In this document: one piece after another, positions 2,150-45,721 of the stretch
How positions within the stretch are numbered: position 1 is the stretch's first letter
How the letters are laid out: every line of letters starts with the position of its first letter
Source of the DNA: Raillietiella orientalis
Lineage: Eukaryota
DNA length: 61,657 bases
Assembly: GCA_036172245.1 (NCBI GenBank)
Contig: JAYWIR010000096.1
Span: 186,001-247,657 of the forward strand
Reading direction: 5' to 3'
Made by a program: the position numbers and the translations under genes
The notes under the pieces: generated by a model
Told to the model about the DNA's origin: nothing
Databases searched by the model: none
The model's input: the letters and a program-made list of their open reading frames with translations, nothing else

Positions 2150-2354
2150 GCTCCAGGGTGGACGTGTTTTCTCGGTGCTCCTCGTGCCAGGAAGTCTCCC
2201 CAAGTGCAAGCGTCGTGTGGTTCGGTGGTCGATCAGGCTGCGATGCCTGACGCGACCACCAGGGATGGCCAGGGGGCAGCGGCAACGCCGCCCCCAGAGG
2301 CGATGGAGAGCCAGGGGGCGGCGGCAACGTCGCCCCCAGAGGCGATGGAGGTGG
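2150..2354 (+). mobile_element. LINE D3: 5' end and ORF1 start only
   Basis: Near-identical to the D1 5' end (reverse complement of ~23040-23244) and to D4; starts gctccagggtggacgtg; encodes MPDATTRDGQGAAATPPPEAMESQG. Confidence 0.93.
2269..2350 (+). repeat. Two-copy tandem repeat (~42-bp period) in D ORF1 N-terminus (QGAAAT[P/S]PPEAME)
   Basis: ccagggggc(a/g)gcggcaacg(c/t)cgcccccagaggcgatggag occurs twice; also present in D1 (~23045-23126) and D4 (~60631-60712). Confidence 0.9.
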
Positions 2355-2824
2355 ACGTTAAAGTCCCCCGCAATGAGATGGGCCACAGTAGGGTGAGATC
2401 GAAAGAGCCACTGCCCTTGAAGCGTACCGAAAAACTCAATACTTTCGGCCCATCGTCCAGCACCGCTCGGCGCGTACACGTTGGTTACGACAAGGTCGAT
2501 CGAGTCGGACCACTTGAGTACAAGCTGTCCCACTCGGCCTTCCGTGTCGAAACGAACGCTGCGCACCGCTTTCGCCAAAGTTCATCGCACGAGGAAAGCG
2601 ACGCCGCACGTACGTGCAACGCCGCACCTATAAAGTAACGTTCCGCCCGCGCGCCGTTAGATTTCTACAGCCTGCTCTCCGGAGATGCTGTGAATCTCCT
2701 GCAGGAGCGTCAAGTCGAAAGCGCGCAGAGCGTGAGCCACTAGTCGCCTCTTCTCCTCATGTTGGAGCCCGTTGACGTTCCAAGACGTTACGGCAACACG
2801 ACCAGAAGACGCGATTGCCCTCAT
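2355..2824 (-). pseudogene. BC1 ORF2 N-terminal APE endonuclease fragment
   Basis: TGATG stop/start at 2826-2822; VVTNVYAPSG and HLIAGDFNVH in ORF 1946-2578. Confidence 0.88.
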
Positions 2825-3540
2825 CACGGCTGGGAAAGCGAGGCCGTGGTGCTCGCCTCACCCGTCGAGCGGGCAGTAAGCAGCACGAAGGGCTGGAGGG
2901 CGCGGTCGCCACCGGTCTCAACTGTGCTGCACGTAATCGGGTGCTCCTCCCAAGGTGCAGAACCTGTGGGTTCCGGGGTGAGCACTCGCCGTTCCGCGGC
3001 GAGTGTGTCACGCCTCAGGGCTTCAGCCCTGCGGGCGCTCGCTCCCGCGCGAGTAACGCGTCGTTCAGCTGCGTACACGCACTCCTTTGCGGAGTCTGAT
3101 GCTCGCATGATCGACGTGCGCTTGCATCCGTCCGATTGCAACGGAATGGTCTTCTAGGCGGTCACAGAAGCGGACTTGCACGCGTTGAAGGCGCTGGCTT
3201 TTTCCTTGGAAGAGTCACAAGCCGCGCGAGTTCTTGTATTCCCGCGACTGCTTTCTCCTTTGGAAAGGCTCAGGGATGGAGGTTGCGGAGCTTTTTTTGG
3301 AGATTTTTCTTTCCTGCTCTCCACAACCTTCTATTCGCCTTCGCGATTTTCGGAGGCTTCCGCGACAGTAGTTGCGGAAACCTCCGGGATTTCCGCTGCG
3401 TTCTCTGGAGGTGTTGCTTTCGCTACGCCTTTAAAAGGCGGCAATGGAGTCACCTTCTTGACAGTCGGGAGATTGCTCCTCTCCTGCCGTGTCGGTGAAC
3501 TTGCTCCGCGGCTCAAAGTATTGTGCGATTGACAAAGTAA
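2824..3540 (-). pseudogene. BC1 ORF1 C-terminal part (after the A1 insertion)
   Basis: ORF pieces 3331-3516 and 2824-3141 match ORF 39014-39643; ends SLSQP-stop overlapping the ORF2 ATG. Confidence 0.82.
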
Positions 3541-3546
3541 TCAGTT
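3541..3546 (+). promoter_or_regulatory. Initiator-like TCAGTT at the 5' end of family A
   Basis: Conserved at the first bases of all three A copies (3541, 38926 minus, 50867); fits the TCA(G/T)T(C/T) Inr consensus. Function inferred. Confidence 0.45.
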
Positions 3547-3667
3547 AATTGTGCTCGTGTGTACCCGGAGAGGGGAAGTTTTCCAGACGAAACCAACAAT
3601 AAGAAGCGGGGAGGAGATCGCGGCAAAAGACCTGCAGTTGTCCCGTGCAGCAAGACCAGCTGCCAGG

Positions 3668-5427
3668 ATGCAGGCACCTAGAGGAGGAGTGGAGAGACCG
3701 TCGTCCCCCATGGAAGCCATGGAGGTAACGTGCGGCAACGGCGAGGCGGTGGCAGGCATGCCGAGGATCGCGCCCGCGGCGGGCTTTGCTGCGCCGGCGG
3801 CGGCGATGCCAAGGGTCGTACCCACGGCGGCGACGCCGAGGATCGTGCCCGCGGCGGGGAAGGTCGCGCCTGCGGCCGCGATGCAGAGGGTGCCGCCCGC
3901 GGCGGCAACGGTGGCGACGTCGAGGGTTGCGCTCGGAGCGGCGGCGTCCCAGTGTGGACCCGCGGGCATCCACGCGGTTCAGGGCGAGACGCCATCTTGT
4001 TCGGCTGCGGTGGCGCAGCCCTTTTCCTATGCGTCGGTGGCGGCTGGACAAGCGAGTGTCCACCCACCAAGAAAATTCGGGAAGCCGCTATGCGGTAAAG
4101 TCCAAATGGTGGATCGGCCGATCGTGGAGTTAGGGACGAATGTGAAGCCCATCATTTTCAAGATTGGACTGATCAAGTTCAGTAATATTAGGGAGGTGTA
4201 TCTGTCCCTTGATAAAACGGACATGAATTTTGATCGCATACAGGCGATCATACCAGCAAACAACGGGTTCACAGTCTTCACAGACTGTGAAAAGATAAGA
4301 GAGCGATTGATCCATAAGGGGATCAATATACAAAGGAGGATGGTTTGTGGTGTTGGCGAGATGCCATACACAACCGTGTTTCAGTACGGCATCTCCATCC
4401 TCACACCGCAACTAACGGTGTGGAACTTTTTGGAGCAGTATGGGGAAGTTCTGGACCTTGAACTCCAAAACTTCTCTGGAAAAATATTTTCTGGCGACAT
4501 GATCGCCAAAATGAAGTTAAAAGAGGGAGCTGTGATCCCTGGATTAGCCGTTCTTGACGAACAATCCCAGAGAGTGAACGTGCGTTACCGGCAACAGCCG
4601 ATATTCTGCACCGGGTGCAAGCAGTTCGGCCACAGGGCCGGCGCTTGCCCAACGTGTCGTTGTTTCCGCTGCGGCAAAGTAGGACATCAAGTCCGAAACT
4701 GCCGCAGCCGGAGGTGTGCTCCTTCTGCAAGAAACACGGACATGCGAAATCGAGCTGTCCGGAGTTTGCAAACTGCAGAAGGATTCGAGGTCTCTCTCCC
4801 GTGAGAGAGAGAAACACGAAGGGGGCGGAACAGCCTCAGAAGGCAGGAAGGCCGAAGAAGGTGAAAGAAGCAGTCCCGGTATCGAAAGACGGCTTCATAC
4901 ATGTAGGGAAGAAAGGAAACAGGAGGATGCTCGTCAAGGAGCAAGGAACCCCTCTCACCCTACAAGGTGAAGAGCAAGAAGGCGAGAAGATGGAGGTAGC
5001 GCAGGAAGGCGCGGAAGAAGAAATAGGCGAAGCCACTCCGGTGTCGCAGGAGGCCCTGCAATCTACGCAGGAGTTGGCATCACTGGCTAGTGTAGTCCTA
5101 GAGGTGCAGAGCGGTCCCCAGCAAGAGAAAATCTTGCAGAAGATCTGCAATGCACAGGAGAAGGTCAACCAGGTTGTGGAGGTCACCGAGCGCGAAAAGC
5201 TAGAGGAACAGCTTCTCGATGTAAAGGCGAACTTCTGCGCCAAGGTCCAGATAAAGACGCTATCTCGAAAACTGATCGAGCGGGCCGAACACTCGACGGA
5301 GGAGGCGGAAGTAACCGACCTCACCGGAACAGAGAGTGACGCCGGCAGCGAGAAGCCCGCTGCTTCTTCATTGTCTGGAAGAGCACGCTATCTCAGACAG
5401 AAGAAGCTCAGGAAGGCCAAGAAATAG
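3668..5427 (+). pseudogene. A1 ORF1, gag-like zinc-knuckle protein; 1-nt frameshift near 4702
   Basis: CTGCKQFGHRAGAC, CFRCGKVGHQVRNC and CSFCKKHGHAKSSC are split over ORFs 3551-4804 and 4615-5427; uninterrupted in A2 (36954-38801). Confidence 0.9.
3758..3950 (+). repeat. Ala/Pro-rich degenerate tandem repeat in A ORF1
   Basis: MPRIAPAAGFAAPAAAMPRVVPTAATPRIVPAAGKVAPAAAMQRVPPAAA; A2 and A3 carry one extra unit (TTAEVVPAA / TTVEVVPGA). Confidence 0.8.
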
Positions 5428-5440
5428 GTCTTCCCTTTTT

Positions 5441-8400
5441 ATGGCCTCTTCCCTATCGACCGCCAGGAGGCTGAACATCGCCTCCTGGAATGTAAACGGT
5501 ATGGTCGACCAGGGAAAAAGAAGAAGTATTGTGCGGACCATCGCACAACAAGACATAGTGTGCCTGCAGAAGACCCACAAGATGGGTCTCGAGATTAGTC
5601 AGCAAATGGAACGGCGATTCAACGGGCAGATTTTCGTCAGCGAGGGAGAACGGAACACGCAGGGTGTGGCGGTCCTAATCAAGGACAACTTGGCCCCCAC
5701 TATTCTGGAAGTGTTCTGTCCCCAACCCGGACGAATCATCGGCGTGCGACTCGCCTGGTCCGCTACTGTTCACCTCATCCTGGTGAACGTGTGCGGGCCG
5801 CACAGGCTAAAACATCGTTGTGCGGAGGCGCTGCATGCAGCACTCCGTGGAAAGGTTGCTTCAAAGGACGTCGTGATTGTTGCTGGCGATCTCAACATAT
5901 TGGATGAGATCACTCACTCCGAAGACGCCAGAGGAAGGACGCCGTATCGGCGATTATCCGACGAGTTCGGACTGGTGTGGCGAACTGCAAGTCACAAGCC
6001 GATCGATCACGTCCTGCACAGCACCGAACTTGGGAACCGCATCCAGGGGTTTCGCGACACTATGACTACGGTGTCCGATCACCCCCTGGTGCGGTTTTCC
6101 CTAAGAACGGAGAATCCTCGGCGGAGGCAAGGCACCAGGGCAGCGCTCATCAGCATGCCCGCCTGGTTCGAAACCCATCCCGGACATCAGGCTGTCCTGG
6201 AGGCGATTCTGAGGGCAACAACAATCCGAAGAGTCGCCGACTGGGACAGCCTGAAACACAGGATACACCTGTTTGCGAACATGCAGTTCGGGGATAGGCG
6301 CTTGAGGCAAGAGGCGTACCGGGAGCTGAACATCCAAGATCGCTCCCTCTCAAAGTACTTCGATCAGTACGAGAGTCGGTACGTCCTCAATAACATAATA
6401 GGGGAAGTCGGCGTGCTGGAGAAGAGAAATCTGGCAACAGCTATCTTCTGCATCCAGTACGACGGCCAAAAGCGACAGTCGTCTGAGGACATCGTGGATG
6501 CCTTTCACAGGCATTACACGAAACACTTCAGGCGACAACAGCTGTGTCGCTCTAGTCAACAGGCATTCTTGAGCTATCTCGAGAAGAGGACCGACGACCT
6601 CCAGCGGAACAGACTGGAGGAGGAGTTCTCCGAAGAAGAGGTGAAGACTGCGTTTGGGCAACTTCGCAAGGACGTGGCAGCGGGCCCTGACAGTGTACAC
6701 ATCACGCACTATCAGCGGTACCTGCACGCCTACCTGCGCTTGTTCCACCAGTTGACCCTCTGCATCCGGGAAGAAGGCAGACTACCTCAGTCCTTGTACG
6801 AGAGTCGGATGAGATTGCTGCCGAAACGAGGCGACTCTACCCAGATCGCCCAATGGAGGCCAATCTCGATCCTAAACTCCGATGCCAAGTGGTTGGCAAA
6901 GATCTGGTCCAACCGCTTAGGCAAGGTCATGTCGAGGCTGATCTCTCCGGTCCAGACATGTGCAGTCCCAGGACGACACATGTCGGACAATGTCAAATGT
7001 GCCCAGGCCACTGTTGGACTCAGTCGATACGTCGGCGAGAACCTGGTGCTGGTGTTCACTGACATGGAGAAGGCCTTCGACTCCATCGACCATGGGATGC
7101 TGCTGAAGGTTCTGGAGAAGCTAGGGCTTCCGAAACACTTCAGCAACTTCGTGAGGGCGGTACTCCAGAACCAGTACTGCCGGATCAAGATCAACGGCCA
7201 GGAGATGGCAGCAATCAGGATGGAACGAGGAGTCCGACAGGGCGACTCGCTGAGTCCGATGCTGTTCGTCATCTATATGGAGGCGTTGTCGTCCTTTATC
7301 GAGAAGAGCGGACGACTAAGCGGGATTACCATCGATAGCCAGCGTCTTACCCATCTGGCATACGCCGATGATCTACTCTTCTTCATCAAGGGAGAGAAAA
7401 ATCAGCGTGCCTTTCTGGATGTGGTGGACCAGATGGAACAGGGCTTGGGCTTAAAAATATATTCCCAGAAGAGCCAGCTTTTGCCCGACGGAATACTGGA
7501 TCTCTCCACTCTAACGGGTAGTGGATTCCGTACGGTCGACACGGCCAAGTACCTGGGAGTCTACATCGGCGACGGCTCTGCGTCGAAGCTGCTGTGGAAG
7601 GAAATCCTGGGGAAAACGGCCAAAGAAGCAGCCAAGTACACCCGAACGGACCTTGGGATGAAGCGAAAGGCCATCATATGGAACGGAGTACTCCTTCCGA
7701 AAGTGCTCTTCGGGGCGGCCTTCGCGAGGATGAACAAGGACACTACTAGGGAGTTCGACAAGCTGCAAAGAAAAACACTCTGGGGCCACTATCGCCCAAG
7801 AGTAAGACTGAAACCCCTGTGTCGTCCCAGGGAAGAAGGCGGTTCCGGGATAAAGTCGCTTGCACATTCCATGGAAATCATGGATACGCGACACATCCTG
7901 GACATTGCCACTTAGTGGGATGACTGGCCGTATGCGGCGCACGGGGCATACGCGTTGCTGCTTAACAACTCGGAAGGCCTGATGACTGCGCTGCTAGGCA
8001 AAGTAGGGGACTGGATAACAATCGACCCGACCTGGAGGAGGAAGCAACGGCTGGTGCGGAAGCACCAAATCAAGATCGTGCCGCGAAGCAGAAAACTCTG
8101 GCAGGACGAGTCCATCCTGGTGATCCCTTGGTTGCTTCCTGTCCCGCCGGACACGAGAAGCTGGATCTACCAGCGGTCCAGAGTTACCCTACTGCAAATC
8201 CAGGAGTGGAGGCGAGGAGGCTACCTACATCAAACACGTATACTTCGGTATACAGAGATGATGTTAGGAAGGTTTACCCACAGGACCCGCGAAGTGTGGT
8301 TCAACCACAACGACTTCGCATGGTCGAGGGTAACCAGAACAAACCTCCGAAGGCTTATCCAAGAAAACGAACGTGACACCACTGCCCTCCAGGAAGTCAC

Positions 8401-8959
8401 CGAACGCTACGGGAGTGAACGGTTCAACCTGTTAGCGATCGGCACGACGCTCTGGAGGAGTGACCTTCCGCCGGGCACCCAGGATGACCTCCTGATGTTT
8501 TATCACGGAGGAATCCAGAGTGGGTCCCGATTGCAGCACTTCACAGGAAGACGGGAAGACCGAGACTGCGCAGCATGTGGAGACGACGACAAGAGACTTC
8601 ACGTCTTGACGTTTCCCTCACTGCTGCATGTCTGGCTGATCCTGGAAAGGATCATAGGACTTACCAACAAGTCCGTTATGGAGATCCTCGCCGGGATGTT
8701 TCATGGGGATGGTAATGTTCCCTGTTACAATCCCATGGTGAGGACGACCATAGCCCTCTTCATCACCGCCATACTTGTGCGGTGGTGGAAAATGAGGAAA
8801 GCCAGGAGAGTCGCACCACCGATGGAGATCCTACAAGGGCACTTGAAGAGGGAAATCGGCATCAGGAACTGCGGGAAGATCCACTCCTGGACGTACCGAT
8901 TCATCCTGAAGAGGATCCGGGACGACGCCCGGGACCATCCAGCTGGAATTTCCCCCTGA
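5441..8959 (+). pseudogene. A1 ORF2, APE endonuclease-reverse transcriptase; one in-frame TAG at 7913-7915
   Basis: SWNVNG, AGDLN, IDHVL, SDH; WRPISILNSDAK, DMEKAFDSIDH, GVRQGDSLSP, AYADDL, KYLGV; ORFs 5336-7915 and 7955-8959 share a frame; the catalytic QE reads QK in this copy. Confidence 0.94.
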
Positions 8960-9062
8960 AAAGCAGAACACTAGTGCAACCCAAGGACCCCCAAGTGCAA
9001 AATGTTTGTATTGAGTGAATGAGAGTGCGAATGTAAATTTTGTATTTTTGTAGAAAAATAAA

Positions 9063-10339
9063 CTTACCCCACACCTTGTGGGACTTGGGGAAACCTTCCG
9101 ACTCGGCGATGAAGCGACTGCATGCAGCGTGCTTTTGCTCGTCGCGACGCTGCTTTTTACGGCTTTCGTAGCCTTTGCAGTGGGGCCTGCGCTGCAGTGG
9201 CGCTGTCCGGAACTCGGAAGGGACAACGAAACGGGGCAAGAAGTCTTCGCACTGTTGCGATCTTCCTGTTTTCCTACCATTCCCTCCAGGGTGTTACGGA
9301 GATTTCCTGGTTCCTGGCTCGGAGAGGTGCCTGCGAGCTCGGCAGAGAGGGAAGCCATGGCACGCGTCAAACCCTCGCGCCCCTTTTTAATTGTCTTCCC
9401 CGCCGTGACTTTCCCCTTTCGGGGCGTTGCGGGCGGGGATGCTTTCTTTTGATCCGCGGATCGCTCGTAGTTTTTTGCGAGTTTTTGCGGACGACGTTTT
9501 TTATTTGCTGCTGCGGCTTTTCGTGCAGTGGTCTCTTGAACCCGACGAATTTCCACTGCGGCTCTTTTTCTTGCAGGTACCGGGCACTTTTTGATTTCGT
9601 GCCCGGAATCTTTGCAATAGCGGCATCTTGGAGAGGGGCACTCTTTAATTCGGTGCCCCTCCTTGCCGCACTGCTCGCACGCACGAGTCTGGCCTATGAA
9701 CCACAGGTGAACGACCGTGCCGTTCAATTGCAGCTGCTCAGGCACAACACGCCTGTTCGCGACGGTGATCCGCGCGGAGGCTTGTCCAATGTGGACAGAG
9801 GGGAAATCCTTTAAAGGATTTGGCCTCCTACACAGTGCGTGCACGGTGGCGAACTTCGCCAGCACACTTGCGACATCGCGGTCGGAGATTTCCGGTTCGA
9901 TGTCGCACAATTGAACGACAAAAGAGTCGTCCATCGCGGTAGGTAGGACTTCCTTGCCATTGATGGTCAACGGCGTATGGAGAAGGCGCTGCACAAGTGC
10001 TGCGTTCTTGCACCGAATCTTCGTATATTCCATCCTGCCAGCAGGCATTATGGCAAGGAGTTCCTCCTCGCGAACGCCTATCCGGACGAGCTCATCATTG
10101 AGCTCACGACCGATTCTCCCGTTAAGTGGCCCACTGACCTTATAACGGAATGCAGGCATGTATCCTGATGACACATATGCCTGGAACTTCGCATCGCAGG
10201 TTCCTGGTCTTTGGGAGGTAACGGCGGCGTAACTCCTCACCGGAGGCAAGGAAACCATTACGGAGGATGCGGCCACTTCAAGTGCAGCTGAAGTGCACCC
10301 AGTGGCTTGCTCCTTCACACTATCCTGTGTACTAGCCAT
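9063..10339 (-). pseudogene. BC1 ORF1 N-terminal part (two CCHC knuckles), interrupted by A1
   Basis: CEQCGKEGHRIKEC and CRYCKDSGHEIKKC in ORF 8831-10339; the last ~75 codons of that ORF are read-through into antisense A1. Confidence 0.9.
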
Positions 10340-10459
10340 GTTGCACTATGCTACTTGGCAGGTTGCACAGGAACACACAAGTGCGAGCAAAAACGCAGGC
10401 ACAAAGTTGCCCGATCGTTGGCACGGATAGACGCGGAAACACGTCTGCACTGTACGAGC

Positions 10460-11192
10460 GCAAGAGATCGAACGGATCACGGGTGGGCGGCTGTTGTGGC
10501 GTTGCGGCACCGCGAAATCAAGCGGTGTCTTCTTCCTTCTTCGGCCAGCAATCGAGACCGCAATAAAGGACGTTCGGTACGATGACGCTGGTCGCGTCGG
10601 TCAGCTGACTCTCAGCTGGTCCGACTCTATCGTCCTGGTCGTCAGTAACCTATACGCTCCTAGCGGAAACGCTGCGTTGAGGGCGAAGGCAAGAAGGGAG
10701 TTCTACCTTGCCGTGAGACGCGATTGGCTGACCGATGCAGGAGTTCGCAAAGTGCACCTGATCGCAGGTGATTACAACCTGCGCCTGCTTTCAGGTGCGC
10801 CGGATACACTGAACGACCGCGTCAACGAGTTTTGCGCAGAAATAAACACGCTCAACTTGTTGGCCGGGGACACGGCCATTGAAAGCAGCATCGATCACGT
10901 GTACCTTGATCAGCACCTATGCTCTCGGGTGGGCAAGCGCGGCAAGGTGCCATCCGAGCTGTCGGACCATGGTCGGATCATGTTCGAAGTCCGTCCGCGC
11001 GACAAGGGCCCCCCTCGCCAGCGTGGCGTCTGCCAGGGGACTGGCTGAAGTTTCCCGCCGCGGCGGAGCACCTCCGCGCGTATATTCGGAGCTTCAGGAT
11101 GCAGACACTTCCGGACTGGGACCGCTGCAAGTGGTCGGTTTAGGAGTTCTGCGACCGGTTCCCTTTGCATCGCCTACCTACGGGATTTGGGG
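10460..11192 (+). mobile_element. Host LINE H: APE endonuclease fragment between BC1 and G1
   Basis: AQEIERITGGRLLWRCG, NLYAPSG, IAGDYN, SIDHVYL, SDH, ending PLHRLPTGFG. Confidence 0.88.
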
Positions 11193-11408
11193 TTTCCACC
11201 CGGGTTCGCTCGGGGCGTCTATTGTATGAAACTCTACAAGAAAACGTGGTACAAGGCCCCACTAACGGCCACACAACACCGGATTTGCCGGGACGCCGGG
11301 ACGCAGCCCGGCGTGACGCTCCTCGGCAGTGGAGGGGGATAGGGATCAAAACAAAAAGAAAAATAAAGATAAGGAAAACAAAAAAGAGTTTGGAGGGAGG
11401 GGAAGGGA

Positions 11409-14400: not shown

Positions 14401-14995
14401 GGAAGAAGTGGTCGATGCTGCGGTCCATTCCCTCCGCGTCCGCCAACAAGTTGGGCGTGCGCATGGCAGCGCACAACTCGTTGGCTGTGCGTTCTTGTGC
14501 TTCGGGATAACCTGACAGCAGACGGAGATTGAAGTCTCCAGCTATCAGGTGTGCCTTCCGCACATTCATGTCGGCCAGCCAATCGCGCTTCAGGGTTTCC
14601 AGCAGCCTGGTACGGTCGCGGTACCACTGTTTGCCGCTGGGGCGATACACGTTTGTGACGATTAGTTCGATCGAGCCGGACCAGCTGAGAATCAGCTGAC
14701 CGATCCGACCGTCGTCATCAAACCGCACGCCCTTTACGGCAGCGTCGATGGCCGGCTTCACGAAGAACGCGACCCCGCAGGTGTTGCGGAGGCCGCACCG
14801 CCAATACAACCGACCCTCCGCGATCGTCTCGATCTCCTGGGCGTCTGCCGCGGTGATCACGTGGATCTCCTGCAGCAGGGCCAGGTCGAGCTCACGCAGG
14901 GTGTCGGCCGTATCTCGCCTGTTACCGTCGTCGCGCAGCCCGTCGACGTTCCAACAGGCGGCGCGAATCCGACGGCGACTGGCGAGCCAAGGTGT
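11409..14995 (-). pseudogene. G1 ORF2 (APE-RT-CCHC), several frameshifts and stops
   Basis: Collinear ORFs 14219-14860 (AGDFN, SIDH), 13539-14276 (WRPITIVN), 12876-13520 (DLHKAFD, QGD, YADD), 12213-12752 and 11409-12164 (CARC..H..C). Confidence 0.92.
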
Positions 14996-16741: not shown

Positions 16742-16833
16742 CGGACACCAACGATGTTCCACACCAAACAACAATAGAAAAAACCTCTTCCTGTCGACTC
16801 ACTCGGGAGCGAAGGAAAAACACGTCCACTCGC

Positions 16834-17673
16834 CAAGGGCTTCGGTGAGGGTGTCAGGAAAGAGCGGGCGTACCTCTAGGCGCGCCTTTATTCACGGCGT
16901 CCCGACGTCCGTCGCCTGGCTGAATTCAAGGCTGAGGCGGAGAGGCACGCCTGGCAGTCAGGCTCGGCCAGCCTGCTGGATCATCAGGGCCAAGAACGCT
17001 CCAGCCTAGCCCAGGTAAACCGCATCGTGCGGGAGTTTTATTCCTCCTTGTACGTGCCACTAACACCTGAGCGCCATTTCGCGCAACGCCTGCTGCCGGA
17101 TGGTGCTCCCGCGCTCAAGGAGGAGGACCGTTCCAGATTGGCGGAACCGTTCACGATGGCGGAGATCATCTCCGCCATCAACAGGCTCAAGAAAAAGAAG
17201 GCACCAGGGGAGGACGGCCTGCCCCCGGAGTTTTACCATCGCTTCGCGCCAGAGCTGGCCCCCCTGGTGCTCAGGTTAAGTGCGCTAATTCGCAAACACG
17301 GCGAAGTTCCCGCCTCGTTCCGGTCAGCTAAAGTACGTCTCCTGCCGAAGTCAGGAGACTTACGCAACATTGGCAACTGGCGTCCCATCACAGTAGTGAA
17401 TGCGGACGCAAAGTTGTATGCCAAGTTCTGATCTGAGCGTTTGGGGCGGGTGGCCGCTTCCGTGGTGAGTCCCGAGCAGACCTATGCTGTTCCCGGACGA
17501 ACCATGGAGGCCAACCTGCTCCTCGCCAGCTCATGGTGGCAGTTGCGACAACGCGTTGCACAGGACGGTCAAGGGAGCCTCGCGCCCCCCTCTGACCAAG
17601 AAGATCGGGCAGAGGGTGAGATGGACTCGGCGGGAGCCTTTGCCGTCGCGGTCGATTTGCACAAAGCATTCGA
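16834..17673 (+). mobile_element. Host LINE E, part 1: ORF2 linker to RT motif AVDLHKAFD
   Basis: GFGEGVRKERAYL, KAPGEDGLPPEFY, WRPITVVNADAK, AVAVDLHKAFD, then an abrupt switch to the D1 3' end. Confidence 0.9.
17659..17673 (+). repeat. 15-bp target site duplication of D1, left copy (GCACAAAGCATTCGA)
   Basis: Identical 15-mer at 23245-23259 on the other side of D1. Confidence 0.95.
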
Positions 17674-17704
17674 TTTTCACCCGGATTTCGCCGGGGCGTT
17701 TATT
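17674..17704 (-). terminator. Conserved 3'-terminal AATAAA plus CCCGG/CCGGG hairpin (representative of 11 occurrences)
   Basis: Also at 86-111(-), 11193-11223(-), 25335-25364(+), 25779-25807(+), 28345-28375(-), 43539-43568(+), 45675-45700(+), 46383-46412(-), 57891-57919(-) and 60536-60554(+, truncated). Confidence 0.8.
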
Positions 17705-17893
17705 GTAAAATAAACTTTTACAAAGACGTGCAATGCCTGGACCATTGCTCCAGCCACGCACGAAGAAACACAGAGCCTGCCATGTCACCGTTTCGCAGAC
17801 CGGTACGGTCCACCACGGCAGCAGGGTGAAGGAAGAAAAACAAAAAAAACAAAACAAAAAAGAAAAGAAAAGTTGGGAGGGTAAGGGAAGGGA

Positions 17894-20800
17894 TCACAGT
17901 TGCTGGTGGGGCCGTTGCATCCCTTGCAGGATGCCGGCAAGCTCCTTCTGTATTCCTGGATCCAGGTGGGGCCATAAAGACGCCCTCCTCAGAAACTTGG
18001 AGGCTCGCTGGATGGCACCCTGGTCGCGTTGTCCTCCCGTAGCTTTGCTCCAAGCGGTGACGATCCCGCGTAGGCAGCACAAAGCTGCTAACGAGGCCGC
18101 TGGCCGAAGGGCGTCGGCAACGAAGAGGGCTTTCAGTGCGTCCCTGGGGTTGCCGCAGGGGATTCCGATGGCCGCGGCAAAGCGAAACCAAAGGGGCCGA
18201 AGGGCAACACAATCCACTAGCAGGTGGGGGAGGGACTCCCGTTCCGCACACCTGACGCAATTGGGGTCCACCGCTCTCCACGTCCAGTGGTGTCGGCAGG
18301 CGTTGCAGGGGAGTCCCCAGTGCTGCAACAGGAGAGCCGACTCCTGCCATTTCAAGGGGAGGGCGGAAGTGTTCATGAGAACCGGGGACCACTTCAGATG
18401 TTCAATGGGAACATCGAGCAGCGCGCCCCAGCGCAGAAGTCCATTGGGAGGCGTACTCGGGGTCGCAGCATCTGTAAACTGTCCCGTCTTCCACTCTCCT
18501 ATCTTCTTCTCCTTTCCGGAGATTGTTACTGTAACCACCCACTTCGCCGCAACATCGCTGTCCAGATGTTTTATCAGGGAGGGCAGCGCAGCAGCAAAGG
18601 GGGTTCTTCCTGCCCACGCTCTCTTCTTTGGATCCTCCAGGATCTCGCGGAGCGTGCAACTTCTGTAACCCCCAAACAGGAACCTTCGTTCCTGTTGGGA
18701 GCGTTGCATGCTGAACTGTAACCACGTTCGAACGGTTTCCTGCAACCAGGCACTACCGTTAAACGGGCGACAGGTGAGCACTCCTAGGATTTTCCGATAC
18801 AGCGCAGCCACCCTCCGTAGCTGGAGTCCGCATCGGTTGACGCGGCGACGGAGTGCAAGAAACGACGTCAGTCCCGACTTGCCGGTGGCTTGCTGGAGAA
18901 GGAGACGTGCAGGGACGCACCAACAGGTGCACCACAACTCTGGAACGAGTGCCGACAAGCGGAACTGGAGCTGAAGCTCCAGCCGCTCCAGCGGCAGGAG
19001 GCCCAGACCACCATCCCGACGAGGAGGGCACAAGTCCTTTAAGCGGACTCGGGCCCTCCCGTTGCCCCAAAGGGCGATACGGAGGAGGTCCTTTGTCCGC
19101 TTTTTAATTCTCTCTGTGGAGGGGCAAACAAAAAGCAGGCGGCGGAGGAGAGGAGCCGCGAACGTGTTCCAAACCGCGGCCCGTTCAGGCAGGAAAAACC
19201 TGCCGCCTCGGAATGGACCGATCGCCGTCTCTACTTTTTGAAGGCTGCCGGACCACGCTTCCGCAGGGAAGTAGTCCCTCAACGGCACACCAAGGTACTT
19301 GAAGTACCTCACCGTGGGGATCCCCAAACGGACCCAGTCCTGCTGCCCTGCCCACGCCGCACCAACTGGAACCACGGATGACTTCGCCCTGTTCACCGTA
19401 AGTCCGGTTCCCCGATGCAGCAGGTCGAAGAACTTCTCTACCGCCGCAGCCGGGGTGGACATAGGGAGCAGCAGCAGAAGGTCGTCCGCGTATGCCGAAA
19501 CGGCCGGCGTACCAGCACAGTCGTGCGGCAGGTGCGCCAGAGTTCCCCTGTACGCTCTCAGTACCAACTCAAAGTAGGTACTGAAGAGCAAGGGGCTCAG
19601 GCTGTCTCCCTGCCGGTTCCCACGCCGCACCGGCACGCCGTGCACCGTCTGCCCGCTGAAAGTAACATTGATGAGCAAGTGGCGCGAGCAGGAGCGCAGA
19701 TAGGCCACTAATAAGGCCGGGAAGCCCAAGCGTTCTAGAAGCTCCAGAAGCAGATTCTGGTCGACGCAATCGAATGCTTTCTGCAAGTCCATTGCGACCG
19801 CAAGGGTTCCCTCCACCACCCGACCATTTAACCTTTTGCCGGCGCACGCACCGGAATTCCGGCAGCGCACCAAGCTCCTTTCATGTTGGAGCTCTAGCCA
19901 GGTGGAAGCCTGAAACAGGTTCGCCTCCATGCTTCGCCCGGGAACAGCATATGTCTGTTGCGGGCTGATGAAGATGTTGGCAACCCGTCCCAGACGCTCT
20001 GCCCAAACCTTGACCACCAACTTGGCGTCCGCATTCACTATTGTGATGGGACGCCAGTTGTTCATACTCCTCAGATCTCCTCCCTTAGGGAGAAGCCGCA
20101 CCTTTGCCGAACGAAACGAGGCGGGAACGTCACCTGTTTCGCGTATCAGCAAGGTGAGTTGCTGTACCAGGGGGGTAAGCTCAGCCGCGAAAGTTTGATA
20201 AAACTCCGCGGGCAAGCCGTCCTCCCCTGGAGCCTTTCGCCTCTTGAGCTTTCCGATGGCCAAGAGGATCTCGTCCATCGTGAAAGGCTCGTCGAGGGTC
20301 TATCTCTGCTCCTCCCCGATCGCTGGAGTGCCTTCCGGAAGCAGGAGTCGTGAGACGTTCCTCTCCGTAGGTGCCCTGGCATACAGGGAGGAGTAGTAAC
20401 TCCGCATCAGGCCGCGGATTTGGGAAGGTGCCGATTGCTCCTGGCCCTGATCGTCCAGTAAGCTGGCCGATCCGGACTGCCAGGCTTGCCTCTCGGCTCC
20501 CGCTTTGTATTCCGCCAGCCTGCGGATGTCGGCGGTGCTGGCGTAACGACGGGCCTGCAGGTAGGCTCGTTCGTTACGGACCCCGGTCCCAAAACCCGTA
20601 GGTAGGCGGTGCAGAGGAAACTGGTCGCAGAACTCCTGGACCGACCGCTTGAAGCGGTCCCAATCCTGGAGTGTCCGCAGACTGAAGCTCCGTATGAACG
20701 TACGGAGATGTTCCGCCGCGTCCGGGAGCTTCAGCCAGTCCCCTGGGAGACGCCACGCTGACGAGGGAGGGCCCATGTCGCGCGGATGGATCTCGAGGAC

Positions 20801-21475
20801 TAGCGGGCGATGGTCGGACAGCTCGCACGGTAACTTGCCGCGCCTGCCCACGCGAGGGCACAGGTGCTCGTCAAGAAACACGTGGTCAATGCTGTCTTCC
20901 ATCCCCGGTGCACTGGCCAACAGATTACAGGTGTGCACCGCCATGAACACTTCGTTGACCAGGTCACGCTCGGGATTCTGCTCATCTGGTTTCAGGCGAA
21001 AGTTGAAATCGCCTGCAACCAGATGGGCATTCCGCACGCCTGCTTCGGTCAGCCAGTCTCGCCGGAGGGCAAGGAAAAACTCTTTCCTCTCCCTCCTGTT
21101 CATCAGGTGCTTGCCGCTCGGTGCGTACACGTTCGTGACGATCAGATCGATCGAGTCGGACCACCTGAGAGTCAGCTGGCCGACACGACCGTGATCGTCG
21201 AACCGCACGCCCCGAGCCGCGGCCTCGACGGCTGGCCGAAGCAGGTAGGCGACACCGCAACTTTTCGCTCTCCCACACCTGTACCATAGCTGCTCTCCGG
21301 AGATCCATTCGATCTCTTGCGGTTGTTCTGCAGAGATCACGTGGATCTCCTGCAGCAGCGCAAGGTCGTAGGACTCCAGAAGGGCGGCCATGTCTCGTCT
21401 CCTGCCGGCGTCTGTCATGCCGTTCACGTTCCAAACGGCGATGCGCAGACGACGGCGGGAGGAGATTCCCGGCAT
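17894..21475 (-). pseudogene. D1 ORF2 APE-RT-CCHC (~1190 codons); one in-frame TAG at 20300-20302
   Basis: WNVNG, LLQEIH, NVYAP, AGDFN, SIDH, SDH; DLQKAFD, QGDSLSP, AYADDLL, KYLGV; CVRCAERESLPHLLVDC. Confidence 0.95.
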
Positions 21476-23151
21476 TACTGCTGGGAAGATTGAGGTGTGG
21501 GGGAGCCCTCCTCTTGCGAGGCGGGCGGGATGTCCATGGGGGTTTCGGCCTTCTCAGACACCTGAGGCACCTGTTCGGCCTCCACCCCCTCCATCCCCTC
21601 CGTGTCCGTGCGTGGGAGTCTCTCGGGCGACAGGTCCCGAGAGTTTCCCACGCTCATGGCACCCTCGCTTGCGGAGGCCATCTCTTCCCCTTCGACGGGG
21701 AAGACGAGCTTCCTTGGCTTTGTGGACTTACGTCCAGCCTTCTTGCGCGGTGCCGTAGAAACGGAGGCTGCGCTTCCGGCCTCCACCTCGGGGTCGGAAG
21801 TGGGGGACTCCTGAGGGGAGGCCGGACGCCTTACGGCCTTCTTGCCAGCCTTGGAGGGTTCTGGCTGCAACGAGGCTGCCAGCTCCTCCGCGGCTCGCGC
21901 GAAGGCTACGTCATCGATGGTGGTGTCGGTGACGGACGCCGCCGCCCGCTCGCTTCCCTCGCTGTTGACTGTGTCAACAGAGGGGAGGTCGTCGGTAGCG
22001 GCGAGTTCTTTCCGGCAGCGTTCGGCAACATCGAGAACGCGTTCGACAACGACGCTGCACTCTTTAATTATCGCGCTAACCTGCTCTTTCTTCTTCTGTT
22101 GGTAGGCGATTTTCTTTTCCATCCTCCTCTCCTTCTTTGATTTTTTGGCTGTTGCCACTTGCCACTCAGTCTCCTGGCCGGCTCCCTCAACTTTTTCGGC
22201 GTTGGTCGCCGGAGTCTCGGGTGCGGCCTGGGTCTTGGGCGCGGGTGGCACAGCCTTCGCGGCAGCTTTCGCCGCCAGTCTTTTCTGCAGAAGCCGGGCG
22301 CGTTTTTTAAGGTTTCTCTTGGAAACCACCCGCACTGCTGCTTTTGGGCACACCTCCCTCGTGTGGCCCATTGTGCCGCATACTTGGCACTTCACATTGG
22401 GACACCTCTTTTTGAGGTGGCCCGACGTATTGCAGAAGCCACAGTATTTCGGCTTCCCCACATACCAGAGGTCGACGGTTTCGCCTTCGACCACCAGTTT
22501 GTGGGGAAGAGTGCAGCCCTCCCGAACGGTCACGCGCTCAGCAGTGAGGCCGTGTTGCAGCCTCGTGTAGTCCTCGAAAGGACTAACTTTCGTCCACTGC
22601 GCGTGGAACGTTCCAAACTGTTCCAAAGCGGCGCGAACCTGTTCTTTGCGCATTCGCGCGGTCACGCCTAACAGGTGGACCACCATGCTGCGGTCTGCCG
22701 TAGTGAGGAGAACCCTGCGCGTCCCCATCACAACGGGGGTTTTAAGCAGTCGTTGGGCCAGCTCTGCATGTTTGCAGATGACCTCAACATACTGACCCCC
22801 GCTGCGGATTGTCATAGCGCTGAGCTCCTCCTCTTTCACATCGAGAGCGCGCGTGCTCTTCGAGAAGGCGCGCGCGCTCTCTCAAGAATATAAATTGCCT
22901 ACCTTGTAGAACAGTGAGGGGTTGTACCCCTACTCTACATAGGCCGACAATTCCGCCGCGGCTGCAGGCGATGGCGCCGACACAACGGCGCTCCACGCCC
23001 GCGCTGCAGCGGGGACCGATTCTGTGGGGGCGGATGCCCTCACCTCCATCGCCTCTGGGGGCGACGTTGCCGCCGCCCCCTGGCTCTCCATCGCCTCTGG
23101 GGGCGGCGTTGCCGCTGCCCCCTGGCCATCCCTGGTGGTCGCGTCAGGCAT
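21475..23151 (-). pseudogene. D1 ORF1 zinc-knuckle protein; one in-frame TAG at 22930-22932
   Basis: CGFCNTSGHLKKRC and CQVCGTMGHTREVC; TAATG stop/start overlap with ORF2. Confidence 0.92.
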
Positions 23152-23244
23152 CGCTGCCTGATCGACCACCGAACCACACGACGCTTGCACTGGGGGAGAC
23201 TTCGTGGCACGAGGAGCACCGAGAAAGCACGTCCACCCTAGAGC

Positions 23245-25364
23245 GCACAAAGCATTCGACTGCGTCGACCAGGATCTCCTTCTGGAGCTCCTGGAACGCA
23301 TGGGTTTCCCTGCCGTGCTTCAATCTTACCTGCGCTCCTTCTGGCTCAACGCGTCAATCAATATTTGTTTCAGCGGCCGGCACGTGTACGGCGTGCCCGT
23401 ACGCCGCGGCATCCGGCAGGCTGACAGCCTGAGACCCTTGCTCTTCAGCATCTACTTCGAGTTGCTGCTGAGGGCATACAGGGTAACTCTGGCAACGCTG
23501 CCGAGCTCGTGTGCCGGCACGCCTGCCGTGTCGGCCTATGCAGACGATCTTCTGCTACTGCTTCCCGGGTCCACCCCGGCGAGTGCGCTCGAGGATTTCT
23601 TCGAGTTACTGCGCCGCGGGACGGGGATGGAGGTGAACAGAGCGAAGTCGTCTATGATGTACGTCGGCTCGGCGTGGGCTGGACGGTCGGACTGGATCCG
23701 CTTGGGGATTCCCACGGACAGGTGCTTCAAGTACCTAGGCGTTCCAATGGGGGACTTCTGCGCAGCAGAAGCCTGGTCGGACCGTCTCCAAAAGGCAGCG
23801 TTGGCGACCGGTCCGTTCCAAGAAATCAAGCTCTACTTGCAGGAACAGGCCGCGGTGTGGAACGCGTTTGCGGCCCCCCTTCTTCGCCCCCTACTTTTTG
23901 TGTGCCCCGCTTCTTACTTCATCCGTAAACGAGCAGCGGGAATCCTGAGGACAGTTCTTTGGGGCGAAGGGAGGTCCCGTGTGAGGCTCAAAGTCTTGTG
24001 CGCTCCACGTAAGGACGGAGGACTTGGCGTTCTTACGCTGGAGCGCATTGAATTACAACCCAGATTCAGGACTCTCGCCCTTGCGGCGGAATTGTTGGAC
24101 ACGCCTTGGTGCGTTCCAGCACGCCTTTTGGCCCAACGAGCCTGCGGATTCGACGGACTTTTGTCGTTTCTGCTAGCACGCGACCGCAGAGAAGCATACG
24201 GCTGCTTAATCCTGCGTCGCATGCAAGTTGCGGTACGGGAGAACGCCTGGATCTCCTGCCGCCCAGGGAAATACTTTGCATGGCTGCACGAGTCAGTGTG
24301 CACCTGGGTAAACATCCACATTTCGGCGGGCACAAGAAACACTTGCCTGCAAAGGCACGCCCGCTGGAAACTGCAGGAGATCGTGCAGTCCCACGAAAAG
24401 CGCATGTGGGCTTTGATAACCCCCTTTGCCCCAGTGCTGCCCTTCCTCATCGACGCCATGGACAGAAGGGAGCTTGGGAAATGGAACGTGTCCTGCACCG
24501 TTGGAGGCAGGACGCAAACGATTATGGCGTGGATATCTCGGCAGCTAGCGGACGCGGCGACGCCGAGAGTCCCGCCCAACGGAATTCGACGCTAAGGCGA
24601 GCTACTCGGACTATCTCCGGAGGAGATGAAGTGGCCCCCGGCGTCCTGGAACAGTGGATCCCTCCCCCTGAAATGGCAGGATGTGGCGTTGCTTGTGGTC
24701 CTTTGGGGACTTCCATTCAAAGCGCGCCTTCATCACACAACCCGGGGGGCTGTGGATCCTTATTGTGACCGGTGCGGGGAAAAAGAGACCTTCCCCCACC
24801 TTCTCATCGAGTGCAGTGCCATCCGCCCTCCATGCGATCGCCTTACGGCGATCGTGGACTTGCGCGGATGCGGCCCTATGGACGTTTTTAGGCTCCTCTT
24901 CTGTAGTGACGCCTTGTCCCCCCCCTCTTCTGTAGCAGTCCTCTGCTGCATTCGATTGATCGTGGCGGCTTGGAACGCCACCAGAAGAAGACGTCAGCCA
25001 ACCGGCAACGCCTTACGGTTCTCTCGCCTATTCGTCCGAGACGTTTGCAAGTGGCGCCACTTGGGCGCTGAAAGGACTCAGCTTGTACGGATCCTGGATA
25101 GGATCTAGAGGACCTATCCGCGCGCACGGTGATCCCCTCCCTGCCCTCCCATTCCCGAAACATTTGTTCCCTCCCATACTTCAACTATTTGTTTGTTTTT
25201 TGTTTTTTTTTCTTTCCCTGCCCCCGCGCATCGGATAGACCTCTCCGGCATAGAGCCGGTAAATACCAAGCTGTTTTGTAGTGGTGGACCTTTGGGTTCA
25301 ACACGCGACAATCAATTGTAATTTTATTCTTTTGAATAAATGCCCCGGCATTTCCGGGTGGAAA
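23245..25364 (+). mobile_element. Host LINE E, part 2: TSD right copy, rest of RT, CCHC, 3' UTR and hairpin
   Basis: Resumes HKAFDCVDQDLL, then AYADDLL, KYLGV and CDRCGEKETFPHLLIEC; ORF ends at 25108; AATAAATGCCCCGGCATTTCCGGGTGGAAA at 25335-25364. Confidence 0.93.
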
Positions 25365-25375
25365 CGCGGATCACC

Positions 25376-25807
25376 ACCAGGCGGCCTGTCATTGCGTGCT
25401 GTCGTTGCAACCGTTTGTTGCACCCGCGCCATCGATAAGGCCCACCGAGAGTTGGAGAAACTGGCCATCCTTCGTCAGCCCACCGGATTAGCCAGCGCAA
25501 ACATGTCGTCGGCTGCCCAGTGGGCCCATCTGCCACAGGGCGTAAGGAGAGAGATCGCCGGCATCCATCGCCGGTTTTGAAAGGAAGGAACGGATTTACC
25601 AAAGACCCCTGTCCCCTTCCCTCCACATTTTTCTTTTATTTTTTTATATAGTAGTGTGTTTGTGGTCCCTTCCCTCCTGTTGCGAACTTTCGGCATACCG
25701 ACCTGCGTGTCGGGGATCCCACCCCCTTCGTCTCTGGTTTTCCCCTTTGTCCGGGAACCCTGTTCCCGGATAGTTTATAATAAACGCCCCGGCGCACCCG
25801 GGTGACA
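25376..25807 (+). mobile_element. LINE F2, heavily 5'-truncated (ORF2 tail plus 3' UTR)
   Basis: Matches the reverse complement of F3 57891-58325 (VVATVCCTRAI..HLPQGVRRE..IHRRF and the UTR); possible short ATCACC duplication at 25370-25375 and 25808-25813. Confidence 0.88.
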
Positions 25808-28075
25808 ATCACCCGTCCCTCTGCGATCCTTTCGATCTCTTGGGTATTCTCCGCGGTAATCACGTGCAGGAGTGCCAGGTCGAAGTCACGCAGGGTAGCG
25901 GCTGTGTCCCGTCTGTTGCTGTCGTCGCGCAGCCCGTTCACGTTCCAGCAGGCCACGTGTAATCGACGGCGACAGGCGGGCCCAGGTGTTACTCCTGGGA
26001 AAGTGGCAATGGGGCTCCCGCCACCTGGTCGGGCGGGACGGATAGAGGCATGAGGGCACCGCCTATTGGTTCTCTTACCTGCATGGGGGCCGATTTCTCG
26101 GCGGACCGCAACGGTTGAAGGGAGCATGCTTCACGCACCTGCTTTCCCTCTTCCATGGGGGCCGATTCCTCGGCTGCGTTGGACGGTAGGGGGGAGCGGT
26201 TCACATCTGTCTGCTCTTCCTCTTCCATGACCACCTATTCCGCAGGCTCCACCGGTGGAAGGGGGAGGCAATGCCCTACCTGCTCCACCTCCACCATGGG
26301 GGTGGCCGGCTGCTCGGTGGCGGAGGGTGGGAAAATTCTTCCTTCCGTTCCCAGGCTGCCGGCTTCCCACTCGGCTGCCGGTGCGTCCCCCTCGCTCTTC
26401 GTCTGGATGCGCCTCTTGGGATTCTTGGACTTCCGTCCAGTCTTCTTCGGAGGCGCCTCCGTGGAGGAGGACGCACTTCCGGCATCCGGGTCGTGGTCAC
26501 CTGTCGGAGGTGCCCTGGTCGCGGCCGGCCTTCGCAAGGCCTTTCGCGCGCCGTTCTTACGCTTGGCGAGTTCGGTTGCGAGCTCTTCCGCCGCCTGCTG
26601 AAAGGCGGCCTCGTCGATCGCTGCGAGCGCGTCGCGCGGTTCCCCCTCTGTTCGCACAGAGGGTTCGCCTTCCGTGATCGCGTTATCGTCGGCGTCGACG
26701 CGGGGGATATCTCTTCCGGTGGCGGTCTCAGGTACCTCCACACGCTCCAAAGCGACCGAACATTCGCGGATCAACGCGCGGCGTTGTCTCCTATTTAAAG
26801 GAGACGTCGGGGGTTCCGCTGTCGACCCTTCGGTTTTCTTAATTTTCTTGGCTTTAGGCTTCGCCTTCTGCCAGCCTTCGCTCTTTTCAGCGTCGTAGGT
26901 ATATTCCACGACCGGCGTTGGCTGCACGGGCTCGGGCTCCGGCTGTGGGTTCCGTCTCACGGGTGCCTTCGCAGGCTTTTCCGTAGCCCCCGCGCGTTTC
27001 CCATTGGCCTTTTTCAAGACAGCGGGAGCCGGGGGTTCGCGCTTGGGGCACACTTTGCGGAGGTGGCCCTTCTCTACACAGTGAAAACACTGAATGTGAG
27101 GGCACCGGTTTTTCAGGTGCCCTGTGGCATTACAGTGTCCACAGTACTTGGGCTTGCCCACGTACCAGACGTCGACTGTCTCGTTGCCGACGTCTAGTTT
27201 GTGGGGTAGCCCACCGTGTTGGTGGACGGTTACACGCGCACCAGCCTTGCCACTAAACAGTCTTCCGTAACTTTGGAAGACGTTGGGCTTGGTCCATAGC
27301 GCGTGAACCGTTCCGTAATTTCTGAGTTCCTCCTGCACGTCGGCTTTCGACATGCGAAGGGTGACTCCCGTGAGGTGCGTCACCACGGAGCGATCCTCCG
27401 TTACCTGGAAAACCTTTCGGCCTTCCAATGTGAGTGGCGTATTCAGTAGGTGTTGAGCAAGGCTTGCATTTCTGCAAGTCCCCTCCACCAGTTGACCACC
27501 ACTCAACACGGAAAAACTTTCCAAGTCTTCCTCTTTTACGTTCAAGCGCGGCAACTCCCTTTCGAAGTTGCGAGCGGTGTTCCCGACAAACAGATTGCCT
27601 ACCTTGCATATCAGGGACGGCTTGTATCCCTGCTCTAGGTAGGCTTTCTTCTCGGCGAGGGCTGCAGGAGATGGGGCTGCAGCCACTGAACTCCAGGTCT
27701 TCGGCGATGCCGAAGACGCATTCGAGGGTGCAGGTGCTCCCTTTTTCAAGGTAGCATTTGTCCTCTTTTTCAAGGGAACAATTGCACCCTGTTCCAGCGG
27801 GCTTTTGCCCCCTTTTTCAAGGGGGCTTTTGCCCTCGCTTCCGAGGCGGCGGTTGCCTCCTTTTTCAGGGGTACGGCTACCGTCGCCTCCGTGGGGGCGG
27901 TTGCCCCCACCTCCGTGAGTTGGGGAGAGGAGCGAGCCTCTCCCCCTCCTATATCCATCGCGGTGTTCTCAGGTATTCCGGCCATTGGACACTGCAGATG
28001 CTTCACACACAAACACAATCGAAATCACCCGCTTTACACCAGGCGCGGAGGAGCGCTACAAAAACACGTCCGCAC
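25808..28075 (-). mobile_element. LINE G2 (G-related subfamily): 5' end, ORF1 and start of the endonuclease
   Basis: 5' GGACGTGTTT at ~28062-28071; knuckles CGHCNATGHLKNRC and CFHCVEKGHLRKVC; ORF2 start ACWNVNGLRDD..EIERIAEGRV cut by F2. Confidence 0.9.
25989..27985 (-). pseudogene. G2 ORF1 zinc-knuckle protein, with frameshift and stop
   Basis: ORF pieces 27770-28018, 26235-27773 and 25989-26234; repeated (P/T)LKK motifs at ~27735-27875. Confidence 0.87.
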
Positions 28076-45700: not shown

Positions 45701-45721
45701 GCACCGCCGAAAGTCGGCGAA

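Follow-up and report, generated by a model that had tools for sequence, protein, structure and literature searches.

The stretch of DNA examined here, a 61.7-kb window (61,657 nucleotides) of contig JAYWIR010000096.1 in the Raillietiella orientalis assembly GCA_036172245.1, is a nest of GC-rich (52-64%) non-long-terminal-repeat retrotransposons encoding an apurinic/apyrimidinic-type endonuclease (APE) and a reverse transcriptase (RT), a description on which self-BLAST, Pfam and tblastn agree. According to self-BLAST and tblastn, fragments of related long interspersed nuclear elements (LINEs) cover most of the window, and the nest appears to be composed almost only of LINEs. Pfam was run on 40 of the 116 stop-to-stop frames of at least 150 amino acids, and tblastn with six proteins of the window; all copy counts given below apply to this one window and to the three copies that it holds of our main subject, the LINE family BC. 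Most of the elements form a single group of related families that we call D-like, 45-65% identical pairwise at the protein level, in which a first open reading frame (ORF1) with a CCHC knuckle is followed by a second one (ORF2) encoding the APE and then the RT. Another LINE, X, is distant from these families (25-30% identity). All three BC copies lie antisense at the same nucleotide of the APE-coding sequence of other LINEs, and we argue that this probably reflects sequence-specific targeting. The BC copies and the X elements nested in them are located as follows.

2349-10459, minus strand: BC copy 1, with its 5' end at 10459 and ORF1 with a CCHC knuckle from 10345 down; cut off in the APE
31991-43568, plus strand: BC copy 2, both ends kept, with ORF1 at 32105, APE at 39598, RT at 40822 and the 3' end ...CCGGGTGAGAA at 43568
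46383-57854, minus strand: BC copy 3, both ends kept
about 2900-9100, plus strand: X nested in BC copy 1
about 33355-39500, minus strand: X nested in BC copy 2
about 50250-56490, plus strand: X nested in BC copy 3

From its predicted coding content BC is an L1-like LINE of about 5.4 kb, with a CCHC knuckle in ORF1 and an APE and an RT in ORF2. The order along the element is a 5' terminus starting with GCTC, ORF1, an antisense X of about 6.1 kb, the APE, the RT and a 3' end ...AATAAACGCCCCGTCGTGACCGGGTGAGAA without poly(A). The 5' terminus reads GCTCGYACAGTGCAG... and is full length in 3/3 copies, while the 3' end consists of AATAAA, a GC-rich segment and GGGTGAGAA, again with the poly(A) tail missing. 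Pfam recognizes zf-CCHC in ORF1 of copy 1 (E 1.3e-4) and RVT_1 in the copy 2 ORF at 39715-41790 (E 5e-17). By tblastn, the segment 40822-43191 is 49% identical to RT residues 2-790 of D1, a full-length element of family D in the same window, and the BC APE shares 52% amino acid identity with residues 12-417 of the D1 APE (E 1.5e-129) and contains the LL(Q/L)EIH motif. The Pfam domain Exo_endo_phos is reported in D1, in X and in two further elements of the nest, F and H.

A sequence-only reading of this DNA had proposed that BC inserts at one site in the APE-coding sequence of three different hosts, and the junctions bear this out. All three 5' ends (last BC bases 10459, 31991 and 57854) adjoin GCARGAGATCGAA and both preserved 3' ends (last BC bases 43568 and 46383) adjoin ...GGAGAT; exact pattern matches and alignments confirm these five positions, which that reading had already listed. 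Junction nucleotide, antisense orientation and termini are thus the same in 3/3 5' junctions and 2/2 3' junctions. The pattern GAGCGCARGAGATCGAA, which spans the 5' junction, is found exactly at 10456-10472 (plus), 31978-31994 (minus) and 57851-57867 (plus), and a fourth match with 2 mismatches, at 21308-21324 (minus), is an uninterrupted host site; 0.04 matches are expected by chance and 0/100 shuffles reached four. The 13-mer GGAGATTTCTCAC of the 3' junction occurs exactly at 43562-43574 (minus) and 46377-46389 (plus). With 2 mismatches its chance expectation is 1.75, so that the count alone is no proof and the alignment context decides. At the 5' junctions, the sequence upstream of GCARGAGAT is swapped for the common BC terminus ...ACACGTCTGCACTGTRCGAGC (also given as ...AAACACGTCTGCACTGTRCGAGC), and at the 3' junctions the sequence downstream of GAGAT is swapped for TTCTCACYYGG (TTCTCACYYGGTYACG...). 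All copies run antisense to the APE gene of their host and lie about 10-12 codons past the catalytic LQE, in agreement with the earlier estimate of some 10 codons. By hand arithmetic, if insertion were random over both orientations of a host of about 5.5 kb, one particular nucleotide and orientation would be hit twice more with a probability near 1e-8.

The host sequences that flank BC, and the places where related elements present the same target empty, are listed below (^ marks the presumed nick).

10460-11192, plus strand: host H (of copy 1), C-terminal part of the APE, starting GCAAGAGATCGAA; right copy of the duplication at 10460-10468
16829-17674 and 23245-25372, plus strand: remainder of host H, beyond the nested elements F and D1
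28346-31990, minus strand: host D2 (of copy 2), a member of family D, APE from GCAGGAGATCGAA on, RT and 3' end; inserted at the HKAFD codons of a further host at 28049-28345
57855-57892, plus strand: host G3 (of copy 3), 38 nt of APE coding sequence between the 5' end of BC copy 3 and the 3' end of E', an element of family E (57893)
43569-44340, minus strand: host flank N2, APE N-terminal part and upstream sequence, ending ...GCCCGGGAGAT at 43569, where it adjoins the 3' end of BC copy 2
45736-46382, plus strand: host flank N3, APE N-terminal part, ending ...GCATAGGAGAT at 46382, where it adjoins the 3' end of BC copy 3
21300-21330, minus strand: empty target in D1, CCGCAAGAGAT^CGAATGG, presumed nick at 21312/21311
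14820-14850, minus strand: empty target in F, GCCCAGGAGAT^CGAGACG, site at 14832/14831
25823-25853, minus strand: empty target in the element G1, CCCAAGAGAT^CGAAAGG, site at 25835/25834; a family E element lies 38 nt downstream, with its 3' end at 25805

On the host sense strand the target reads ...GC(N)CARGAGAT^CGAR..., which corresponds to the codons (P/A)-Q-E-I-E, and the core RGAGAT^CGAR is invariant over eight host flanks. This ten-base core is found 9 times in the window where 0.61 are expected, and 6/9 of these occurrences are at the APE position. In the intact relatives D1, F and G1, alignments show that APE coding runs through the site (...LLQEIHVIxAxxxQEIExI...). The proposal that BC targets a conserved APE segment is supported by the fixed nucleotide and orientation and by the empty sites in these three elements. 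The nine host positions GCARGAGAT occur on either side of the insert, which from the sequence alone looks like the signature of staggered cuts. In copy 2 the two duplicates, CCGGGAGAT and GCAGGAGAT, are 7/9 identical, one of the mismatches being a CG/CA difference, and in copy 3 the corresponding ATAGGAGAT and GCAAGAGAT are 6/9 identical. Of the imperfect target-site duplications of about 9-11 bp with a GAGAT core that had been predicted, the imperfection and the core stand, and the length settles at 9 nt.

Three identical junctions could also descend from a single chance insertion of BC, if host and BC had then been copied together by segmental duplication and the flanks overwritten by gene conversion up to the very edge of the insert. 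The same nested X sits at the same position in all three copies, copies 2 and 3 form an inverted pair 2.8 kb apart, and a mosaic pattern of identity shows that conversion or recombination acts in the nest, all of which such a history would accommodate. It would have more difficulty with the contrast between insert and flank. The 700 nt of BC that adjoin the 5' junction show 94.4% identity between copies 1 and 2 (661/700; 82.3% for copies 1 and 3, 81.0% for copies 2 and 3), against 71.8% (501/698) on the host side of copies 1 and 2; at the 3' junction of copies 2 and 3 the values are 78.0% (539/691) for BC and 60.3% (395/655) for the host, and a sliding identity profile agrees with this contrast. 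On its C-terminal side, just 38 nt (57855-57892) of the copy 3 host can be seen. The differences between the flanks extend over kilobases, and these flanks are parts of elements (D2, H and G3) with ends and guests of their own: H contains F and D1, G3 has E' 38 nt downstream, and D2, 92.3% identical to D1, ends in a further host with a family-D 3' junction of its own. High insert identity, diverged flanks and structurally distinct hosts indicate that the hosts are not one duplicated locus, the case that the sequence-only reading had regarded as damaging to its claim. Moreover, the same coincidence would have to recur for family D in three hosts and for family E in two, and we consider this duplication history very unlikely.

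The identical junction nucleotide, orientation and termini, the differing hosts and the empty sites are direct observations, and the explanation that we favor, with a probability of roughly 0.8, is that BC integrates by sequence-specific target-primed reverse transcription at the APE-coding site of related LINEs. The BC endonuclease would nick the host-sense strand after GAGAT, and the 3'-OH at the nick would prime cDNA synthesis on the BC RNA, which would place BC always antisense to its host. A cut of the second strand 9 nt upstream, before GCA, would duplicate the nine positions GCARGAGAT, and the full-length cDNA would be joined precisely at the 5' end of BC (GCTC...). The insertion splits the host ORF2 within its endonuclease domain, in line with the claim that the host endonuclease is destroyed. 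The position of the nick, the role of BC's own endonuclease and a possible movement of BC plus X as one unit are inferences.

It is conceivable that BC has no sequence-specific endonuclease of its own and has spread between paralogous LINEs by homologous recombination or gene conversion through their conserved APE flanks. The site is fairly conserved (the 12-nt BC site ranks 75th of 3220 short windows for conservation), the hosts of copies 1 and 2 agree in 19/20 of their first bases and diverge after that, and signs of recombination exist in the nest. Yet flanks that are only 60-72% identical overall would be a poor substrate for homologous exchange, and conversion tracts should bring the flank of the donor with them, when the left duplications of copies 2 and 3 in fact differ at 3/9 positions. 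D1, in addition, is bordered by a perfect 15-bp duplication of the kind that a fresh staggered cut leaves. For these reasons we judge such a spread very unlikely.

Targeting could, alternatively, be guided by the untranslated regions of the BC RNA pairing with the target DNA, and not by the endonuclease protein. The last 9-11 nt of BC (CCGGGTGAGAA) do bear a loose likeness to the host-sense sequence that lies just 5' of the nick in the copy 2 host (CCGGGAGAT), a likeness that is missing for the copy 3 host and for the consensus target. When the untranslated regions of BC and D were compared without gaps to targets of 50-60 nt on either strand, nothing rose beyond shuffled sequences: the best scores, 5-8, were reached by 40 to 300 of 300 shuffles. 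An RNA guide is, in our opinion, very unlikely.

Several observations weigh against targeted integration by the BC endonuclease and have to be set beside those that favor it. Three RGAGATCGAR sequences elsewhere in the window (34954-34963, 42876-42885 and 48530-48539) are unoccupied, so that either recognition requires more than these ten bases or not every site has been filled. The 9-nt duplications are imperfect. Pfam gave no APE domain in the copy 2 ORF of BC at E<=0.001, and the assignment of this domain comes from the tblastn alignment to D1. All BC ORFs are broken and all three copies carry a nested X, hence none is autonomous as it stands. Identity along the BC-plus-X units is mosaic (for instance, a 400-nt bin of X shows 95.5% identity between copies 2 and 3 versus 88.5% between copies 1 and 2), which means that recombination or gene conversion acts in the nest. 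The two flanks of copy 2 do not match the same relative equally well: N2, on the N-terminal side (43569-44340), is 79.7% identical to D1 (21325-22024), and D2, on the C-terminal side, 92.3%. It is therefore doubtful that they are halves of one element, and either the flanks were exchanged by recombination after insertion or family D has modular 5' ends. Finally, with only three copies in 61.7 kb, BC copies with unrelated flanks may lie outside the window.

In BC's own APE gene, the homologous place is written differently.

39745-39790, plus strand: homologous place in the APE of BC copy 2, ...GCT GCC GAA ATT GAA CGG..., without the CARGAGATCGAA target

This own site (GCCGAAATTGAA) reads GCT GCC GAA ATT GAA in copy 2, ACT GCC GAA AAA GAA in copy 3 and GCT GTA GAA ATC TAA in copy 1. 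Copy 2 keeps the residues E-I-E, the bases at and before the nick differ from those of the target CAR GAG ATC GAA, and E-I-E is written with A/T-ending codons inside a GC-rich element. Such recoding may represent self-immunity, an idea with which it fits and which it does not prove.

BC is not alone in this behavior. Family D lies antisense at the HKAFD codons of the RT in three different hosts, namely H, the fragment at 28049-28345 and an element at 302-2149.

17675-23244, minus strand: D1, full-length, in host H at the HKAFD codons
28346-31990, minus strand: D2, at the HKAFD codons
2150-2354, plus strand: D4, a 5' fragment, at the HKAFD codons
from 60555, plus strand: D3, 5'-truncated, adjoining the 3' end of another element and not a HKAFD site

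The perfect duplication around D1 is GCACAAAGCATTCGA (17659-17673 and 23245-23259). In host sense, the 3' junctions of D are GC(A/G)TTCGAT followed by TTTCACCCGG, at 17674/17675 and 28345/28346, and the 5' junctions are ...CCCT(A/G)GAGC followed by GCACAA(A/G)GC(A/G)TTCGAC, at 23244/23245 and, as the reverse complement, at 2150/2149; the target is GCACAARGCRTTCGA^. D is full length at the 5' end in 2/3 cases. BC and D have in common a 5' terminus GCTC and duplications that begin with GCA. The own HKAFD site of D differs from the D target only in the H codon. In the comparison over five host families in which the BC site comes 75th, the D target comes 242nd, and both targets are, on this measure, conserved stretches but not the most conserved ones.

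In family E the 3' end (CCGGGTGA), also antisense, falls 38 nt downstream of the BC site, both in G1 (25805/25806) and in G3 (57893/57892), where two insertions are thus separated by 38 nt. Identity is about 88% between the E copies and about 74% between the N-terminal parts of their hosts. Single examples are given by element F (11193 to about 16800, minus strand), nested antisense in H near APE residue 317-326 with its junction at 11192/11193, and by the 3' end of H, which lies in E at about 25372. Antisense LINE-on-LINE insertion at set sites appears, from these alignments, to be general in the nest for BC, D and E. A bolder reading, which we offer tentatively and to which we give slightly less than even odds, is that these families constitute a guild of sister LINEs, each homing antisense to a different conserved ORF2 motif of its relatives, in a kind of LINE-on-LINE hyperparasitism. 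BC would aim at Q-E-I-E in the APE, D at H-K-A-F-D in the RT and E at a point 38 nt further on in the APE. The target could not mutate away without harming the enzyme of the rival, and the attacker would be guarded by a recoded motif, such as GCC GAA ATT GAA in BC. If this were true, mutual homing alone would suffice to produce and sustain LINE-only clusters like those of Zepp or of centromeres.

The known targets of target-specific LINEs include rRNA, snRNA and tRNA genes, telomere repeats, microsatellites and a DNA transposon; Tx1L targets the DNA transposon Tx1D. Members of the R1 clade (R1Bm, TRAS, SART) and of the Tx1 clade (Tx1L, Keno, Mutsu) resemble BC in being APE LINEs that enter one nucleotide of a multicopy target, with a fixed orientation and a duplication of fixed length. 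What sets BC apart from them is that its target is the coding sequence of a conserved enzyme motif in competing, related LINEs, and not an RNA gene, a microsatellite, a telomere repeat or a DNA transposon. The nest differs from them too in that several sister families each have a different target in the ORF2 of their relatives, and the likeness concerns behavior, not placement in a clade. For R1Bm, the element's own endonuclease is the known determinant of specificity (PMC1919474), and transposons are listed among known LINE targets (PMC4640811). In the literature searched we found no LINE described as aiming at APE or RT codons in other LINEs.

The closest parallel for the nest as a whole comes from Zepp and ZeppL, green-algal LINEs of the L1 clade that insert into existing copies and form nested, LINE-dominated clusters (PMC3446292, PMC8226300, PMC9940879, PMC11005252 and a 2025 CENH3 preprint), one per chromosome and thought to be centromeric (PMC3446292, PMC8226300, PMC9940879). 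Zepp and ZeppL share with the nest described here the GC-rich, L1-type elements and the clusters made almost only of LINEs. Zepp nests are reported (PMC8226300, citing Higashiyama 1997) to be tandem arrays mostly of 5'-truncated 3' ends. Such same-orientation arrays, as portrayed there, are not what we see in the window, where BC, D and E are antisense to their hosts; BC differs further from Zepp in being full length at its 5' end, without poly(A) and at a defined codon. The available portions of PMC8226300 and related accounts give no nucleotide-level target for Zepp.

Two other systems invite comparison. Homing endonuclease genes and mobile group I or II introns, as an analogy only, also recognize conserved coding sequence and spare their own occupied or recoded allele; BC, in contrast, would use target-primed reverse transcription without splicing, and the host gene is destroyed and not preserved. 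DIRS-1 of Dictyostelium is a retroelement with a preference for its own copies, and it forms nests at the centromeres. It differs from BC in being a tyrosine-recombinase element, and we know of no single-nucleotide target in a coding motif for it.

If the targeting proposed here is true, the safe harbor of a LINE can be the catalytic-domain coding sequence of competing LINEs, which is a different ecological strategy: it would kill the rival, cost the host genome nothing and aim at a sequence fixed by the functional need of the rival. Sister families with different targets would amount to natural endonuclease variants, useful to understand and to engineer the way in which APE-type enzymes read DNA. 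The same process would offer a concrete mechanism, open to testing, by which nested LINE clusters could form and remain confined, for example the Zepp/ZeppL clusters proposed as green-algal centromeres.

The D-like families also share the organization of their 3' ends, in which AATAAA (or AATAGA) is followed by CGCCCCGG..., a variable stretch of 5-7 nt, CCGGGTG and a few A or G bases. A poly(A) tail is missing in all of them, as judged from the ten 3' ends inspected.

75-111, 11193-11240, 17675-17704, 28346-28375 and 57893-57919, minus strand: D-like 3' ends
25335-25372, 25779-25805, 43539-43568, 45675-45710 and 60536-60554, plus strand: D-like 3' ends

Among six 3' termini subjected to RNA folding, only that of D1 clearly beats its shuffles (z -2.79), so that we claim a shared terminal sequence and not a conserved 3' hairpin.

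Beyond the window, a protein search returned 22 matches at E<=0.001. Just one of these is close, with 62% identity across 55% of the query, and a cluster look-up gave no useful names. In metagenomes, ORF2 of BC matched 80 loci, all distant (28% identity in the best segment of the top-scoring locus, higher only over short stretches), and the 23-base pattern of the BC 5' terminus had 0 matches in metagenome contigs. The ESM Atlas cluster nearest to BC ORF2 is commonest in Chlorophyta, which is only a weak lead towards a green-algal origin.

Of the words sampled from the junction stretch of copy 2, two public sequencing runs contained next to none and a third, X1, a fraction of 0.31. In one contig of X1, 31998 is connected to 43590 through 4 letters, an arrangement that an empty host would show (80% likeness; weak), and another, of 864 nt, starts 4 nt inside the 5' end of BC, as is expected at a branch of the assembly graph (also weak). 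The joint from 32752 to 39631 (side 29, likeness 80) is too weak to rely on. Summed depths in this run are about 12-29 over BC and 55-93 over X, and are not copy numbers.

The nested X lies antisense between ORF1 and ORF2 of BC in 3/3 copies, with the same 3' junction, GGGGA(A/G)A(A) followed by C..., and in copy 1 it contains an ORF1 (3533-4801) and an ORF2 (5315-8956). Either a BC-plus-X composite was mobilized in trans or X is itself site-specific for BC. The in-frame stops between the domains of D1 and of the X in copy 1 are copy-specific mutations and not a common feature. BC copies 2 and 3 make up an inverted repeat of about 11.5 kb with a spacer of about 2.8 kb; this spacer holds two host N-terminal fragments of different orientation and an F-like 3' fragment (44686-45710). 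The 3' end of BC copy 1 was lost through a rearrangement at about 2349-2354, inside the APE (near residue 187), where the copy is joined to the 205-nt 5' fragment of a family-D element (2150-2354). This joint is not a canonical insertion junction and probably arose by deletion or recombination.

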